Sequence record: PV467749.1
Direction: 5' to 3' (one strand)
From: a phage
Length of the DNA: 64,000 bases
The notes under the pieces were generated by a model. That model made no database searches, had not been told where the DNA came from, and saw only the letters and a list, made by a program, of their open reading frames with translations. This document shows, piece after piece, positions 18,862-26,056 of the stretch (the first letter of the stretch is position 1; the number at the start of each line of letters is the position of its first letter). A program made the position numbers and the translations under genes.

Positions 18862-19233
18862 TTATAACATACGTTTTTTACGAATAGTATTGTGGATATT
18901 TTTTAAGTAGTTCACACCTTTACACAACCCATAAAATACACCAGCACATACACCAAATGCAGGTATCATACATGCAAACATCGTTATCAATTCCCACATC
19001 TCCATGCCATCTTGATTCGGTCCAAGGTCAAAGATAACAACCGAAACCAAACCTGTGATACTTAGCATATAATATGCCATGAAGATAATAAAAGAAACAA
19101 TACCAACATCAGAGCGAACTGAATTTAGCATATTATATACTGGGGTTACACAGAAGTAATACAATAACCAAATCAAAGAACCTAAACTAAACACAATAAT
19201 AGTAATGATCGAAAATATTTCACGATAACTCAT
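18862..19233 (-). CDS. Small polytopic membrane protein (membrane-family paralog)
   Basis: 123 aa, 3-4 hydrophobic helices, basic C-terminal tail (..RKKRML); first of 7 tightly packed similar genes. Confidence 0.65.
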   Translation of the reverse strand: MSYREIFSIITIIVFSLGSLIWLLYYFCVTPVYNMLNSVRSDVGIVSFIIFMAYYMLSITGLVSVVIFDLGPNQDGMEMWELITMFACMIPAFGVCAGVFYGLCKGVNYLKNIHNTIRKKRML

Positions 19234-19234
19234 T

Positions 19235-19597
19235 TTAGTTCCTCTTACCTAAACGCTCATGGATTTCGGAAATCTTATTATACATCCATGCCAGCAACTC
19301 AACGGATGCACAGAGAATAACCACACACAGTGTTAGTGAACATACCATAATACCAAATGTTATAAAATTCGAACTCGATGTTAATAATGCAACCAGCATT
19401 AGAATAAAACCAAAATTGAATGCTGTACTCAACACAGTATATGCTGGACTATATCTCCTTTGTATTACATCATATATATTTGATAATGGTCGCTTATGGA
19501 AGTACTTCCCAATGCACACGAATGCATTCAGTGAGAAGATAAATGTATACGCCATTACCATTAATTGACCAATAAAAGATAATTCAATATTATTCAT
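19235..19597 (-). CDS. Small polytopic membrane protein (membrane-family paralog)
   Basis: 120 aa, hydrophobic helices, basic C-terminus (..ERLGKRN); starts 1 nt after upstream stop. Confidence 0.65.
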   Translation of the reverse strand: MNNIELSFIGQLMVMAYTFIFSLNAFVCIGKYFHKRPLSNIYDVIQRRYSPAYTVLSTAFNFGFILMLVALLTSSSNFITFGIMVCSLTLCVVILCASVELLAWMYNKISEIHERLGKRN

Positions 19598-19598
19598 G

Positions 19599-19970
19599 TT
19601 ATCCTCGTTTGCGGTATTTGATGCTTTGGTGCATTCTCTGAAAATGTGGAACTAATACATATTGTACGGTTTGCCAAATTACCATCAGATTATGGACAGC
19701 ACCACCGAGTAGACCAAACACTACACAGATAATTGCCAGTACTGGATCACCATCTACCATACCCCATTTGAATATATGTAAAATCCATACAGTGATAAGT
19801 AGTAATAAACTAATCCAATACGTAGTAAAAAATCCTGCATGTAATTCATAGTCATCAGCAATTTCATCGTATACGGTTTCCAAGAAGGATACACAGAAGA
19901 ACTTGCCAATAATAATAATTGTACTAATAAACAACATAGCAGTTAATATAATAAGTGCAATTTCCATCAC
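19599..19970 (-). CDS. Small polytopic membrane protein (membrane-family paralog)
   Basis: 123 aa, hydrophobic helices, basic C-terminus. Confidence 0.65.
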   Translation of the reverse strand: MMEIALIILTAMLFISTIIIIGKFFCVSFLETVYDEIADDYELHAGFFTTYWISLLLLITVWILHIFKWGMVDGDPVLAIICVVFGLLGGAVHNLMVIWQTVQYVLVPHFQRMHQSIKYRKRG

Positions 19971-20281
19971 ATCCCTCGTTTACGCTTTTGATTGCGTCTA
20001 AATTCGGTTAGCCCACGACTAATCGGTGGCATCAGACTACATAAAAAAATAACAGTTGTTGGTAATAACATGAAGTCAATCATTGCTGTATTAACAGGTG
20101 GATCACATACCAAATAATACAAACAAGTAATACTAATTATGGTTGACCCAATAAAAGGAATACAAAATTCTTTTATCTGTTTTTCAACATAATCAAACAT
20201 CTTCAATACAAATAAAAATCCAACCCAACACATAATAAAATAGAATGAATAAAGCGTGTAAATCAATGTTACGATATCCAT
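19967..20281 (-). CDS. Small polytopic membrane protein (membrane-family paralog)
   Basis: 104 aa, hydrophobic, basic C-terminus (..RRNQKRKRGM); ATGA start/stop overlap. Confidence 0.65.
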   Translation of the reverse strand: MDIVTLIYTLYSFYFIMCWVGFLFVLKMFDYVEKQIKEFCIPFIGSTIISITCLYYLVCDPPVNTAMIDFMLLPTTVIFLCSLMPPISRGLTEFRRNQKRKRGM

Positions 20282-20619
20282 TAGTACCTCGCATCAGGAA
20301 CTTTAGCACGTAATTTATGAACGACTGGGAACAACAACAAACTTACATATGCAATAGTTGAACCCCAATAGAATACTAATATAATTGGTTCACCATTGGA
20401 ACGGAACCCTCTACTAATCATTGAGTAGTGAATAATAGGCATGAACATCGCCATACCAAACCATGCGTGTAATTTTAATTGCAGCATGTTATCAGAGATG
20501 AATACTGAAATTGGTCGTTTGAAGAACCACATCAGAAAGTAGAATCCAGCACTAAGGATATAGTACATAGTACTAACTTTCATATACCACGGCAGTAAGT
20601 GTAAAAAATATTCCATCAT
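20281..20619 (-). CDS. Small polytopic membrane protein (membrane-family paralog)
   Basis: 112 aa, hydrophobic, C-term ..HKLRAKVPDARY. Confidence 0.65.
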   Translation of the reverse strand: MMEYFLHLLPWYMKVSTMYYILSAGFYFLMWFFKRPISVFISDNMLQLKLHAWFGMAMFMPIIHYSMISRGFRSNGEPIILVFYWGSTIAYVSLLLFPVVHKLRAKVPDARY

Positions 20620-20963
20620 TCCTCCGGTATCTTGTTTCGAAGTTCAATCATAACACAACAAAGTTTAATGGTCAAGTAAAAAACTACACATATCATACCC
20701 AATGTACCGTAAACTGCGGAGAATGCTGGCAGTACCTTTCCTGTGAGTGTTGCTACAATACATGCTATCAATGTTGATGCAAACAACGATTGATTAATGA
20801 AAGAATTCATAAAATCTTCACCATTACGCTTATAGAATTGTCGTTTAAAATACCATCCTAGAAACATAACTACCCAAAATGTTACATAACCTGTTAGAAT
20901 AATCCCTGCAATTGAATGTGCAACAGAACTACTCTTTAAAAACTCAAGATAAGATTCAAACAT
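20616..20963 (-). CDS. Small polytopic membrane protein (membrane-family paralog)
   Basis: 115 aa, hydrophobic, C-term ..ELRNKIPEE. Confidence 0.65.
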   Translation of the reverse strand: MFESYLEFLKSSSVAHSIAGIILTGYVTFWVVMFLGWYFKRQFYKRNGEDFMNSFINQSLFASTLIACIVATLTGKVLPAFSAVYGTLGMICVVFYLTIKLCCVMIELRNKIPEE

Positions 20964-24374: not shown

Positions 24375-24755
24375 TCAAAATAAATTCATTTCATGTGCGT
24401 ATTGTGGTTCAAGATGCGATAAGTTTTTGAAGCTTTCTTTCAACTCAGCATCATCTACATACACCGTGCCTGGTACATTCCCCATAGTGAAACCTACCCA
24501 CACAGTCATGTCACCAGTCCCTAAGCGTGGCATTGATAGCGAACCATCAGGTGAAACATCAAACGCTACACTGAAGTCATCAGTAACAACGTCAGAACCA
24601 TTTTCGAGAATAATACATCCACTATCTTTAAGCTTCTGAATGTGGATAGCAGCCTCTACAGCACGTTTGAAGTTATAGTAAGACTCTTTATCCTCAAACA
24701 TTGATTGTTTAATCAGACGCTTGTTTAGCTCGGTTACTTTGTGCATTTGACGCAT
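24375..24755 (-). CDS. Hypothetical protein
   Basis: 126 aa ORF. Confidence 0.6.
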   Translation of the reverse strand: MRQMHKVTELNKRLIKQSMFEDKESYYNFKRAVEAAIHIQKLKDSGCIILENGSDVVTDDFSVAFDVSPDGSLSMPRLGTGDMTVWVGFTMGNVPGTVYVDDAELKESFKNLSHLEPQYAHEMNLF

Positions 24756-25012
24756 TACTTATCCATCTCCCACAGTTGTAGAATTTCATAAGAGCCTGGT
24801 GGTGCTGGATTCCTGATCTCAGGGAATTGAGTACTTTTAGGATTTCCACCAGCATTAAATTCGTCAAGTAATGATTCCAGTTCGCGACGATCCTGAACAA
24901 CATAAACACAATCACCTGAACCTTCTTCGAGAATCATTTCACTTCCTGCACAATCCCATACTGTTGAGATACATAGAATCTCTTTTGTATTTTTATTACG
25001 CAATGCAAACAT
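24755..25012 (-). CDS. Hypothetical protein
   Basis: 85 aa ORF; 1-nt overlap with downstream gene. Confidence 0.55.
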   Translation of the reverse strand: MFALRNKNTKEILCISTVWDCAGSEMILEEGSGDCVYVVQDRRELESLLDEFNAGGNPKSTQFPEIRNPAPPGSYEILQLWEMDK

Positions 25013-25020
25013 AGCACCCC

Positions 25021-25365
25021 CTATCGATTTGGCATTTTATCTCGTAATCTAATGAGATAATCAACCACAGACCATGTTGAAATGAAAGTGATATAAGTAC
25101 CGAAGAATCCTACCAGAATAAAGGCAACAAGTGTACTCCCATTTGGATCTTCAGCTTTAATACCGATGATACCATCAAATACAGTGAAAAATGTAGACAT
25201 ACACGTTAAACAGATGTACATCACCAATAAGAATTCATGTTTCAATGATGGATATAAACGGTCAAAGAGTTTATAAAATTTAAAGTACAGTAGGAGTATA
25301 CCAACAAAGACATAGAAAGTAAACAGTGTTGTTATGATATATGATATTAAATTTAAATTATACAT
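25021..25365 (-). CDS. Small polytopic membrane protein (membrane-family paralog)
   Basis: Start moved to Met9 (GGAG RBS, follows upstream stop at 25367); hydrophobic helices; C-term ..LIRLRDKMPNR. Confidence 0.6.
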   Translation of the reverse strand: MYNLNLISYIITTLFTFYVFVGILLLYFKFYKLFDRLYPSLKHEFLLVMYICLTCMSTFFTVFDGIIGIKAEDPNGSTLVAFILVGFFGTYITFISTWSVVDYLIRLRDKMPNR

Positions 25366-25366
25366 C

Positions 25367-25714
25367 TCAACGCTCCGGTAGATTATCACGTAATGTTTTG
25401 ATTCGATTATACAATTTCATTGCTACATTTCCAAATAAACCAAAACCCATTACTAAAATGTATGCGATGATCATAGTAATAATTACAATAGTACCTAGAC
25501 TGTAATGTACTGCACTGATACCCATTATTGTTTCTACAATGATGTGAGCAACAGAAATAATCAAAAGTACTACTACAATTGGATGATTTGGATACATTCG
25601 GTTAAACAATGTTTTGTACTTAAAGAAGTACAGTACTCCACCAAATAAGAAGTACACAATGTAGATTGATGCAACTGCATAAGCAAACGCATTAGTGTAA
25701 AAAATCATTATCAA
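25367..25714 (-). CDS. Small polytopic membrane protein (membrane-family paralog)
   Basis: 115 aa; C-term ..IKTLRDNLPER. Confidence 0.65.
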   Translation of the reverse strand: MIMIFYTNAFAYAVASIYIVYFLFGGVLYFFKYKTLFNRMYPNHPIVVVLLIISVAHIIVETIMGISAVHYSLGTIVIITMIIAYILVMGFGLFGNVAMKLYNRIKTLRDNLPER

Positions 25715-25717
25715 TCC

Positions 25718-26056
25718 TTACTTTTCAGGGATTTTATTACGCCACTCATCGATGCGATGAAGCAGTTTAAAGAGCAAAAATATCGGAACAGTAGCTATCA
25801 TAGTAGCAATTGTTAGTAATGTCAACACCGATACGAGATTTAATTCGTCAGTACTATATCCACATACCAGTGCTTCAATTATCCCCCACGTACATACACT
25901 GAACATCAAAAATGAAATTGGTGCATCGTAGTATATGCGTTGATACAAGGTCGTGTATCGGAAGAATGCAATAATGTAACAAAACATGTAATACACCCAA
26001 ATTAACGATACTACATAAAATGATACCTTATTAATTAATTCAAAATGATGTTCCAT
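25718..26056 (-). CDS. Small polytopic membrane protein (membrane-family paralog)
   Basis: 112 aa; C-term ..RIDEWRNKIPEK. Confidence 0.65.
   Translation of the reverse strand: MEHHFELINKVSFYVVSLIWVYYMFCYIIAFFRYTTLYQRIYYDAPISFLMFSVCTWGIIEALVCGYSTDELNLVSVLTLLTIATMIATVPIFLLFKLLHRIDEWRNKIPEK

Follow-up and report, generated by a model that had tools for sequence, protein, structure and literature searches.

Ten small phage genes were analysed within a stretch of 64,000 nucleotides (nt; sequence record PV467749.1), referred to at its full length as the window. The genes, designated m1 to m10, lie on the minus strand in two clusters, seven in cluster 1 (18862-21301) and three in cluster 2 (25021-26056), and are transcribed in the order m10, m9, m8 in cluster 2 and m7, m6, m5, m4, m3, m2, m1 in cluster 1 (Table 1). 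The region 18862-26056 showed 98% identity to Escherichia phage WPEC3 (384 kb), in which all ten genes are annotated as coding sequences, and also matched ~35 further jumbo coliphages of the 121Q/PBECO4 type, genus Asteriusvirus. Across the window, ~19 kb of tandem RCC1-like genes on the plus strand give way to a long block on the minus strand, made up of small genes, most of them hypothetical, and including tRNAs, HNH endonucleases and one gene for a phage sigma factor.

An earlier note, made from the sequence alone, had described ten open reading frames (ORFs) of 104-123 amino acids (aa) with overlapping or abutting start and stop codons. Both observations were confirmed: all ten were found on the minus strand as longest ORFs of that size, and neighbouring genes overlap by 1 or 4 nt or are separated by gaps of 1-9 nt. 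The likely starts of m8 and m9 are ATG 25365 and ATG 25708, not GTG 25389 and TTG 25714; each of these ATG codons has a Shine-Dalgarno (SD) sequence, and both agree with database proteins P0028 (beginning MYNLNL) and P0023 (beginning MIFYTN). For m3, translation could begin at GTG 19970 or ATG 19967, each overlapping the m4 stop codon. The first gene of cluster 1, m7, has an SD sequence (GGAG) 7 nt 5′ of its ATG, and that of m10 (GGGGG) directly follows the stop codon of the upstream gene. In most members the SD sequence of the next cistron sits in the last 2-4 codons, such that the end of m6, ATA CCG GAG GAA TGA, holds both the SD sequence and the start of m5. At the junctions 20616-20630, 25367-25380 and 19967-19985 (with sequences such as CCG GAG GAA TGA and CGA GGG ATG TGA), the P-E or K-R-G residues at the very C-terminus are dual-coded with ribosome-binding sites. 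Orthologues of every member were present at all Asteriusvirus loci examined. Relative to 121Q and ph0011, the ratio of nonsynonymous to synonymous substitution rates (dN/dS) was 0.10-0.40 in all but one of 20 comparisons, the exception being m8 (0.84 at a dS of 0.04, a near-identical pair), and 0.16-0.38 relative to JNE01 where dS was measurable. As dN/dS was mostly ≤0.4, the ten ORFs are real coding genes under purifying selection.

Raw pairwise blastp comparisons were mostly insignificant, with significant matches only inside cluster 2 (2e-9 and 2e-12) plus one full-length match between m6 and m7, and profiles were therefore used. Orthologue profiles built from eight related phage loci joined nine of the ten members, and 21 of the 45 real pairs exceeded the top reversed-profile score of 19.7. 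With these shallow profiles, an unrelated 83-aa membrane protein encoded at 23277-23528, included as a control, gave hhalign probabilities of at most 0.5% with every member. Type-specific hidden Markov models (HMMs) matched other types at E values of 1e-3 to 1e-16; only family genes were matched among 457 ORFs, with zero matches among the ~380 non-family ORFs.

Deeper profiles were then compiled from a set enlarged with orthologues found in two phages, RaK2 of Klebsiella and Hallingskeid of Erwinia, in metagenomic contigs and among database matches. Hhalign probabilities of at least 20% were obtained for 23 of the 45 pairs, nearly all over ~60-108 collinear columns, compared with a maximum of 16% among 90 reversed-profile controls. 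The similarity thus extends beyond hydrophobicity; a lack of such similarity is what the earlier note had named as grounds for abandoning its proposal. Members m1-m3 formed a tight group (84-98%), to which m4 was attached through m3 and m2, and m5-m10 formed a second connected group in which many pairs scored 81-99%. The two groups were bridged by m6, through m2 (72%), m3 (62%) and m4 (75%), and by the pair m1-m10 (62%), in alignments collinear across ~85-108 columns. The most divergent member, m4, was also tied in via two intermediates, RaK2 ORF313 and Hallingskeid 9311-9670. In an alignment of 40 sequences, a single Phe was invariant, lying right after the first transmembrane (TM) segment, TM1, within the motif (W/Y/K)(Y/F)F(K/C/R), and an R/H position in the C-terminal tail was aligned in all types. 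Mean column identity in the ten-way alignment was only 29%, and the family alignment contains no conserved run of 7-10 columns. These data demonstrate that all ten proteins are homologous, with significant, collinear, full-length profile similarity beyond hydrophobic composition. The profiles, the HMM cross-matches and hydropathy fully supported the proposal that this virulent jumbo phage encodes an expanded family of small, polytopic, paralogous membrane proteins.

Table 1. Coordinates and properties of the ten family genes and associated features. Probabilities in the last column are from profile-profile comparison with hhalign.
Feature	Coordinates	Strand	Description	hhalign probability
m10	25718..26056	-	First of cluster 2; 112 aa, tail RNKIPEK; phrog_19285	99% m9, 98% m8, 95-96% m6 and m7
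m9	25367..25714	-	113 aa from likely ATG 25708; tail RDNLPER; blastp 2e-12 with m10	
m8	25021..25389	-	114 aa from likely ATG 25365; tail RDKMPNR; blastp 2e-9 with m9	98% m9 and m10
m7	20963..21301	-	First of cluster 1; 112 aa, three TM, tail RAKIRGDF; phrog_19454 at 1e-46	97% m6, 96% m10
m6	20616..20963	-	115 aa, three TM, tail RNKIPEE; phrog_19046; hub of similarity network	62-97% m2-m5 and m7-m10; 18% m1
m5	20281..20619	-	112 aa, tail RAKVPDARY; phrog_27396	97% m6, 94% m7
m4	19967..20281	-	104 aa, tail RRNQKRKRGM; phrog_33258; most divergent member	75% m6, 62% m3, 40% m2, 18% m1 (deep profiles)
m3	19599..19970	-	122-123 aa, GKFFCV motif, tail HQSIKYRKRG; phrog_26405	98% m2, 95% m1
m2	19235..19597	-	120 aa, tail HERLGKRN; without strong PHROG match	98% m3, 84% m1, 72% m6
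m1	18862..19233	-	Last of cluster 1; 123 aa, tail HNTIRKKRML; phrog_27618	95% m3, 62% m10
AAA+ ATPase, stand-alone	21369..22142	-	T4 NrdC.10 orthologue, phrog_1250; always adjoins array	
Sigma-70-like promoter	21331..21359	-	TTGACA-17 nt-TACTAT in 67-nt gap between ATPase gene and m7; predicted from sequence	
Perfect inverted repeat	21333..21354	.	AGTACTAC-6 nt-GTAGTACT; in promoter spacer, overlaps -10 hexamer; AGTACT core	
Intrinsic-terminator-like hairpin, bidirectional	18830..18856	.	12-bp stem; ends cluster 1 and convergent RCC1-like gene	
Sigma-70-like promoter	26793..26822	-	TTGACT-18-TATAAT with TG; heads transcription unit probably including cluster 2	

Kyte-Doolittle scans gave three hydrophobic peaks in each of the ten proteins, the third stretch being long in some. 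Of the three to four hydrophobic helices previously suggested, three TM segments were thus upheld and a fourth was not. The charge distribution was strongly asymmetric: summed over the ten proteins, the N-terminus and loop 2 contain 9 K/R residues (net charge -16), and loop 1 and the C-terminal tail contain 75 (net charge +41). As this follows the positive-inside rule, an N-out/C-in topology is predicted, with a periplasmic N-terminus, a cytoplasmic loop 1 carrying the aromatic-Phe-basic motif, a short periplasmic loop 2 and a cytoplasmic, basic C-terminal tail. An AlphaFold2 model of m6 (predicted local distance difference test score, pLDDT, 70; predicted template modelling score, pTM, 0.33) consisted of a short N-terminal helix followed by three long ones (2-11, 13-47, 55-74 and 77-111). 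Among orthologues, TM2 and TM3 were the least conserved parts, with a mean column identity of 0.24-0.35 for most types; conservation was higher at the N-terminus, in TM1, in loop 1 and at the tail motif.

Two types of C-terminal tail were distinguished. The motif R-x-K-(I/V/M)-P-(E/D/N), which had been proposed as a common ending, was exact in m5, m6, m8 and m10, approximate in m9 (RDNLPER) and m7 (RAKIRGDF), and absent from m1-m4. In the wider form R-x-K/N-(I/V/M/L)-P-(D/E/N) it describes the tails of m5-m10, with m7 degenerate, and the tails of m1-m4 conform to (H/R)-x-x-(I/L)-x-(K/R)(K/R)-x-G. The possibility that the motif is a mere by-product of the SD sequence of the next cistron was considered, and is partly true for the last 2-4 codons. 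However, in 13 of 33 cases P-(D/E) was retained although its codons form no SD sequence, and m1, at the end of the array, keeps a basic tail in which no SD sequence is encoded. This indicates that the tail motif is a protein-level feature, sometimes dual-coded.

The arrangement of paralogue types was compared across related phages. The order m7-(m6)-m5-m4-m3-m2-m1 was identical in the window, WPEC3, 121Q, ph0011, JNE01, Turkey5, A4, Salmonella SD-2_S15 and four metagenomic contigs. In Klebsiella phage RaK2 the order was near-identical, its two m6-type genes preceding m7, and Erwinia phage Hallingskeid carries a related array at the same position with a different type make-up. Individual genes were found duplicated (m7 in 121Q and ph0011, m4 in JNE01 and Turkey5, m6 in RaK2) or disrupted (m4 split into two ORFs, gp228/229, in 121Q; m6 truncated in Salmonella SD phages), and A4 has one cluster-2 gene compared with three in the window. 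Orthologues of m2 were present at every Asteriusvirus locus examined, and RaK2 ORF315 is the orthologue of m1 (1e-33). RaK2 ORF280, a cluster-2-type gene of the same type as m10 (1.5e-8), lies ~11 kb from the main RaK2 array; as RaK2 too has such a gene apart from its main array, the two-site layout is evidently old. By tblastn, the family was detected in Asteriusvirus genomes of Escherichia and Salmonella phages; RaK2-like Klebsiella phages also gave a match, full-length for m7, at 27.6% identity. The retention of paralogue types and their order across phage genera speaks against a recent expansion driven by an arms race, and makes a complex of several subunits an alternative to consider.

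A second constant of the locus is the stand-alone AAA+ ATPase gene, which is ~40% identical to T4-like phage proteins in 1,310 records. Cluster 1 lay downstream of this gene, encoding 255-257 aa, in every genome examined, and the adjacency extended over Asteriusvirus, RaK2, Hallingskeid, metagenomic contigs and jumbo-phage uncultivated viral genomes (UViGs) from IMG/VR. In Hallingskeid the array directly abuts the ATPase gene, and in RaK2 and the locus L011 one short ORF intervenes; the exception was Salmonella SD-2_S15, whose array has no annotated full-length ATPase gene upstream. When the ATPase was used as an anchor to trace distant relatives in IMG/VR, jumbo phages with ATPases 50-70% identical were found to carry, after the ATPase gene, arrays of ~101-134-aa proteins with three TM segments and basic tails. 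No array was found downstream of the NrdC.10-type ATPase gene in T4, PA5oct or one T4-like UViG. The AlphaFold2 model of the ATPase (pLDDT 92) showed a generic AAA+ fold, base plus lid, matching RFC, DnaA, CbbQ and RuvB. Assignment to the ParA/MinD type, as the sequence GKGGVGKT in the window copy might suggest, was rejected, since the consensus reads G-A-x-G-x-G-K-T and a generic AAA+ fold is predicted. The ATPase is itself mosaic, at 99% identity to JNE01, 97% to ph0011 and only 59% to 121Q, and is often mislabelled 'thioredoxin' or 'clamp loader' in GenBank. In the ph0011 record (L005, OP557969.1), notes reading 'Phi92_gp231/233/234' are attached to the ATPase, one m7 orthologue and one 270-bp gene; these labels were rejected as annotation artefacts, as the phi92 proteins gp231-234 are soluble, unrelated to the family and unmatched by its HMMs.

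Sequence divergence of the arrays was very different from that of their surroundings. Family genes shared 25-65% identity with those of JNE01 and A4, and 25-54% with JNE01, for which dS was at least 1.7 or saturated; the best-conserved member was m5, at 54-65% identity to JNE01 and A4. Genes between the clusters were 94-100% identical to those of JNE01 and A4, with dS values of 0-0.31 relative to JNE01. This near-identical set comprises the 83-aa membrane protein and 58-, 123- and 200-aa proteins, with the ATPase also near-identical to that of JNE01. Relative to 121Q, the family genes were mosaic, ranging from 62 to 95% identity gene by gene. Because saturated dS occurs beside near-identical flanks, the arrays are hot spots of recombinational exchange of deeply diverged alleles, and are neither fast-evolving in place nor a recent lineage-specific expansion. 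Each paralogue type nevertheless persists as its own orthologous lineage across genera, which suggests that the members are non-redundant.

The features flanking cluster 1, a conserved promoter and a strong terminator, suggest that it is expressed from its own promoter. The hexamers and spacing of the sigma-70-like promoter were kept in 121Q, ph0011 (TTGACG), JNE01 and Turkey5 (TACAAT), where the downstream proteins are only ~35% identical. The inverted repeat within the promoter is a candidate operator, RNA processing site or attenuator. Pairs of AGTACT occurred 14 times in the window, compared with 0.08 expected by shuffling, at sites including 951, 4520, 11803, 16949, 18835, 21333, 31948, 35000 and 46483, several of which are terminator-like hairpins at gene ends; the paired palindromes look like a phage-specific hairpin or operator motif. 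Cluster 2 is probably transcribed from the promoter at 26793-26822, inside a longer leftward operon, as m10 abuts its upstream gene and no closer strong promoter was seen.

In phage CBB, RpoD-like promoters are concentrated in blocks of short hypothetical genes, interpreted by the authors of that study as serving early host takeover, and ATAAATA marks late genes (PMC5259590). The T4-late-type sequence TATAAATA was absent in front of cluster 1. As an internal control, it had one copy only in the minus-strand 18-30 kb region, at 29050-29057 (minus strand), directly upstream of a gene for a virion structural protein of 503 aa (27517-29028). With the palindromic terminator that comes after it at 27485-27510, this suggests an isolated late gene inside an otherwise early-looking block. 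Literature searches found no transcriptome for the genus Asteriusvirus; from these signals, we infer that the family is probably expressed early. In phAPEC6, none of the orthologues (gp012c-017c and gp028c-029c) was among 62 virion proteins detected by mass spectrometry, and the adjacent RCC1-like proteins were present. As small hydrophobic proteins are hard to detect by this method, the result is supportive, not decisive, of the family proteins not being virion components.

Database searches placed the proteins without naming them. Scans of the ten against Pfam, NCBIfam and PADLOC, and of 40 members against Pfam, returned nothing recurrent and no family match; PADLOC gave one chance-level match only (2TM effector, E = 0.084). 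In PHROGs, nine of the ten proteins fell into seven separate families of unknown function (27618, 26405, 33258, 27396, 19046, 19454 and 19285), with m1, m3-m7, m9 and m10 matching over their full length at E values of 1e-46 to 1e-61, m8 weakly in phrog_19285 (4e-4) and m2 with no strong match; phrog_16874 ('membrane protein') was grouped with these families. A word-indexed search of 5.8 billion proteins returned 22 relatives and an exhaustive HMM scan of 1.84 billion representatives returned 23. All of the latter were 99-127 aa in length, were matched end to end except for one truncated protein, and could each be assigned to one of the ten types. Searches of the PDB and BFVD with the m6 model gave m6's own orthologue as the sole match, and megablast of cluster 1 against 5,426 complete E. 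coli genomes gave none. Literature searches covering phAPEC6, RaK2, CBB, UE-S1, Sharanji, nrdC.10 and reviews of jumbo phages turned up nothing on these proteins. By their PHROG matches, the sequences are already catalogued, but as unconnected 'hypothetical' PHROGs, whose common origin, topology, order and linkage to the ATPase are unrecorded there. No description of their unification, topology, array order, ATPase landmark or allelic pattern was found in the databases or literature searched. The family is old and specific to RaK2/121Q-like jumbo phages.

Several neighbouring features were also noted. The ~16 tandem paralogous RCC1-like ('regulator of chromosome condensation') genes on the plus strand (1-18825) converge on the cluster-1 terminator. 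Their phAPEC6 homologues (gp003-010, gp549 and gp551) are virion proteins by mass spectrometry, and for this reason the RCC1-like proteins may be capsid and tail 'hair' fibres. The 83-aa membrane protein between the clusters (23277-23528, minus strand) is 96-99% identical across Asteriusvirus, with dS near 0 relative to JNE01, and is near-invariant in genomes whose family genes share only ~30% identity; it matched nothing in Pfam or PHROGs and does not belong to the ten-gene family. At 22143-22610, between the ATPase and HNH endonuclease genes, the window lacks ~2.7 kb present in WPEC3 (L001 6471-9447), where a 1.5-kb endonuclease gene and denV mark an indel hot spot of homing-endonuclease-type genes. 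Upstream of cluster 2, three minus-strand genes (26353-26766, 26833-27207 and 27194-27445) encode two small proteins whose N-termini resemble signal peptides and a Lys/Asp-rich 124-aa protein. They are hypervariable or absent in relatives, with 40-68% identity to 121Q; two of the three were unmatched in JNE01, and all three in A4.

Taken together, the family may be a battery of early inner-membrane accessory effectors, acting in exclusion, anti-defence or host takeover. This is the reading we favour, tentatively, as possible rather than probable. Both gene runs are tightly packed and translationally coupled. Host RNA polymerase would transcribe the arrays early, cluster 1 as a self-contained unit with its own sigma-70-type promoter and terminator. 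The products would insert into the host inner membrane, and the members would serve as individually dispensable, non-redundant accessory effectors in envelope-level conflicts. Their likeliest activity would be to block superinfecting phages, or to neutralise membrane-embedded host functions or defences. Specificity could come from the regions that vary fast (TM2, TM3 and the periplasmic parts), with the conserved cytoplasmic motifs giving all members a common feature for interaction or insertion. Gene gain and loss, together with mosaic recombination within the arrays, favours members that act independently. A role in superinfection exclusion or another envelope-level conflict is plausible, since it would fit the inferred early expression, the inner-membrane location, the allelic hypervariability and the gain and loss of genes. 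Asteriusvirus was found to be strongly enriched among persistent infections in bacterial assemblies, with a persistent fraction of 0.76 (bioRxiv 10.1101/2024.12.31.630880); as circumstantial evidence, such a persistent lifestyle makes exclusion or persistence functions ecologically sensible.

A number of observations weigh against a battery of effectors. No similarity to characterised exclusion, anti-defence or host-takeover proteins was found in Pfam, NCBIfam, PADLOC or the PDB/BFVD fold searches. A single complex with several subunits would account at least equally well for the conserved types and order, the translational coupling and the constant AAA+ neighbour. Early timing is read from promoter motifs alone, and sigma-70-like sites were not raised in number in the region (55, compared with a shuffled expectation of 57.7). 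The TM calls come from hydropathy only and the m6 model is modest (pTM 0.33), and the splits and truncations of genes could be sequencing errors.

Known systems offer partial parallels. Imm of T4 is an 83-aa protein with two TM segments. Like T4 Imm and Sp, the family consists of small inner-membrane proteins of a virulent myovirus, encoded in a block of small non-structural genes and probably early; unlike these, its members have three TM segments and 104-123 aa, and occur as a conserved 7 + 3 array rather than as single genes. Imm_superinfect (PF14373) had no match in the 40 members scanned, nor in the ten window proteins. In Hallingskeid, a 91-aa membrane protein annotated as superinfection immunity (L009 1027-1302) occupies the cluster-2 position after a protein-kinase gene; its match to PF14373 (E = 0.012) was below threshold. 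With the hypervariable accessory regions of the T4 superfamily, the locus shares T4-type accessory genes (the NrdC.10 orthologue, and denV and HNH endonucleases in relatives) and mosaic recombination, with deeply diverged alleles beside near-identical flanks. It differs from such plastic regions in holding one paralogous family with fixed types and order across genera, of which T4 has no member. Small phage inner-membrane accessory proteins are thus known in kind, and the multigene array form is without a characterised counterpart.

The rival that survives best is that the seven cluster-1 proteins, perhaps with those of cluster 2, are subunits of one hetero-oligomeric inner-membrane assembly, for example a ring or channel of three-helix subunits. 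Such a complex might work with the NrdC.10-like ATPase in a core membrane step, such as anchoring of replication or assembly, transport, or keeping the membrane energised while a long infection proceeds. We consider this unlikely, though it is the main rival. All members are under purifying selection, and overlapping or abutting cistrons with SD sequences inside the preceding gene would favour stoichiometric co-translation; however, viable phages have gained, lost, duplicated or broken members. The type order is shared by phages of E. coli, Salmonella and Klebsiella and by metagenomic relatives, yet the gene-by-gene mosaic divergence implies that members recombine independently and not as a co-adapted block, and the expected subunit interfaces, TM2 and TM3, are the least conserved parts. 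Throughout the RaK2-like supergroup the array lies just downstream of the AAA+ gene, but in Asteriusvirus a promoter and hairpin separate the two, and ATPase and array alleles are uncoupled (99% compared with ~35% identity to JNE01). The ATPase, moreover, shows no membrane-related features, and ~1,300 phages, T4-like and others, carry it without an array. More doubtful still is a bolder proposal, that the deeply diverged alleles, found in genomes that are otherwise near-identical, would define mutual-exclusion groups (kin-recognition or immunity) among co-circulating jumbo phages, each of the seven to ten types guarding a different inner-membrane entry route or target, or that the proteins would form a novel hetero-oligomeric machine linked to the NrdC.10-type ATPase.

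It is very improbable that the proteins are class-I-type holins, antiholins or lysis-timing proteins, expanded for graded or lysis-inhibition-like control of a very long cycle. Class I holins, typified by lambda S105, are small proteins with three TM segments, an N-out/C-in topology and a charged C-tail. In silico, the family shares this architecture (104-123 aa, compared with ~100-125 aa, three TM segments, predicted N-out/C-in, and a basic cytoplasmic C-tail). Lysis would be expected to be controlled at the membrane by some part of the genome, as the endolysin homologue of these phages carries a TM domain at its N-terminus (PMC5259590). However, the 40 members matched no holin Pfam family at E values up to 1, nothing was found in NCBIfam, and there was no viral or PDB fold match. 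The genes are not beside endolysin or spanin genes: the 121Q endolysin homologue is gp532 (PMC5259590), distant from the family at gp207-209 and gp224-232, and the WPEC3 annotation shows no endolysin or other lysis gene over the part that corresponds to the window. The cluster-1 promoter is sigma-70-like and lacks the late TATAAATA motif, which points away from late expression, and a dual start of the Met-Lys-Met type is absent. To our knowledge, no described holin system has ten paralogous copies in fixed order and orthologous types. We disfavour a holin role, since the likeness is architectural only and both the sequence-family and genomic-context tests failed. The last alternative, that the likeness is merely compositional among hydrophobic ORFs of similar length, or that some of the ORFs are not genes, would suit the mostly insignificant blastp comparisons and the low ten-way identity, but is effectively refuted by profile-profile scores far above those of reversed controls and of the unrelated membrane protein, HMM cross-matches confined to family genes, collinear full-length alignments with the invariant Phe and aligned R/H, the low dN/dS values and the orthologues of each member in many genomes.

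Only a minority of jumbo-phage genes have a known function, and no class is harder to annotate than small membrane proteins. The analysis merges seven or more 'unknown' PHROG families into one, with a topology, a gene order and a genomic landmark. It also defines an evolutionary pattern, in which old paralogue types under purifying selection are swapped as deeply diverged alleles. If the genes are merely redundant accessory genes, this would amount to useful annotation and not the discovery of a principle. The ten compact genes nonetheless offer a tractable way to study remodelling or defence of the host inner membrane by giant virulent phages. Asteriusvirus phages are under development for therapy, and if these genes control exclusion or persistence, they would be relevant to the design of phage cocktails.

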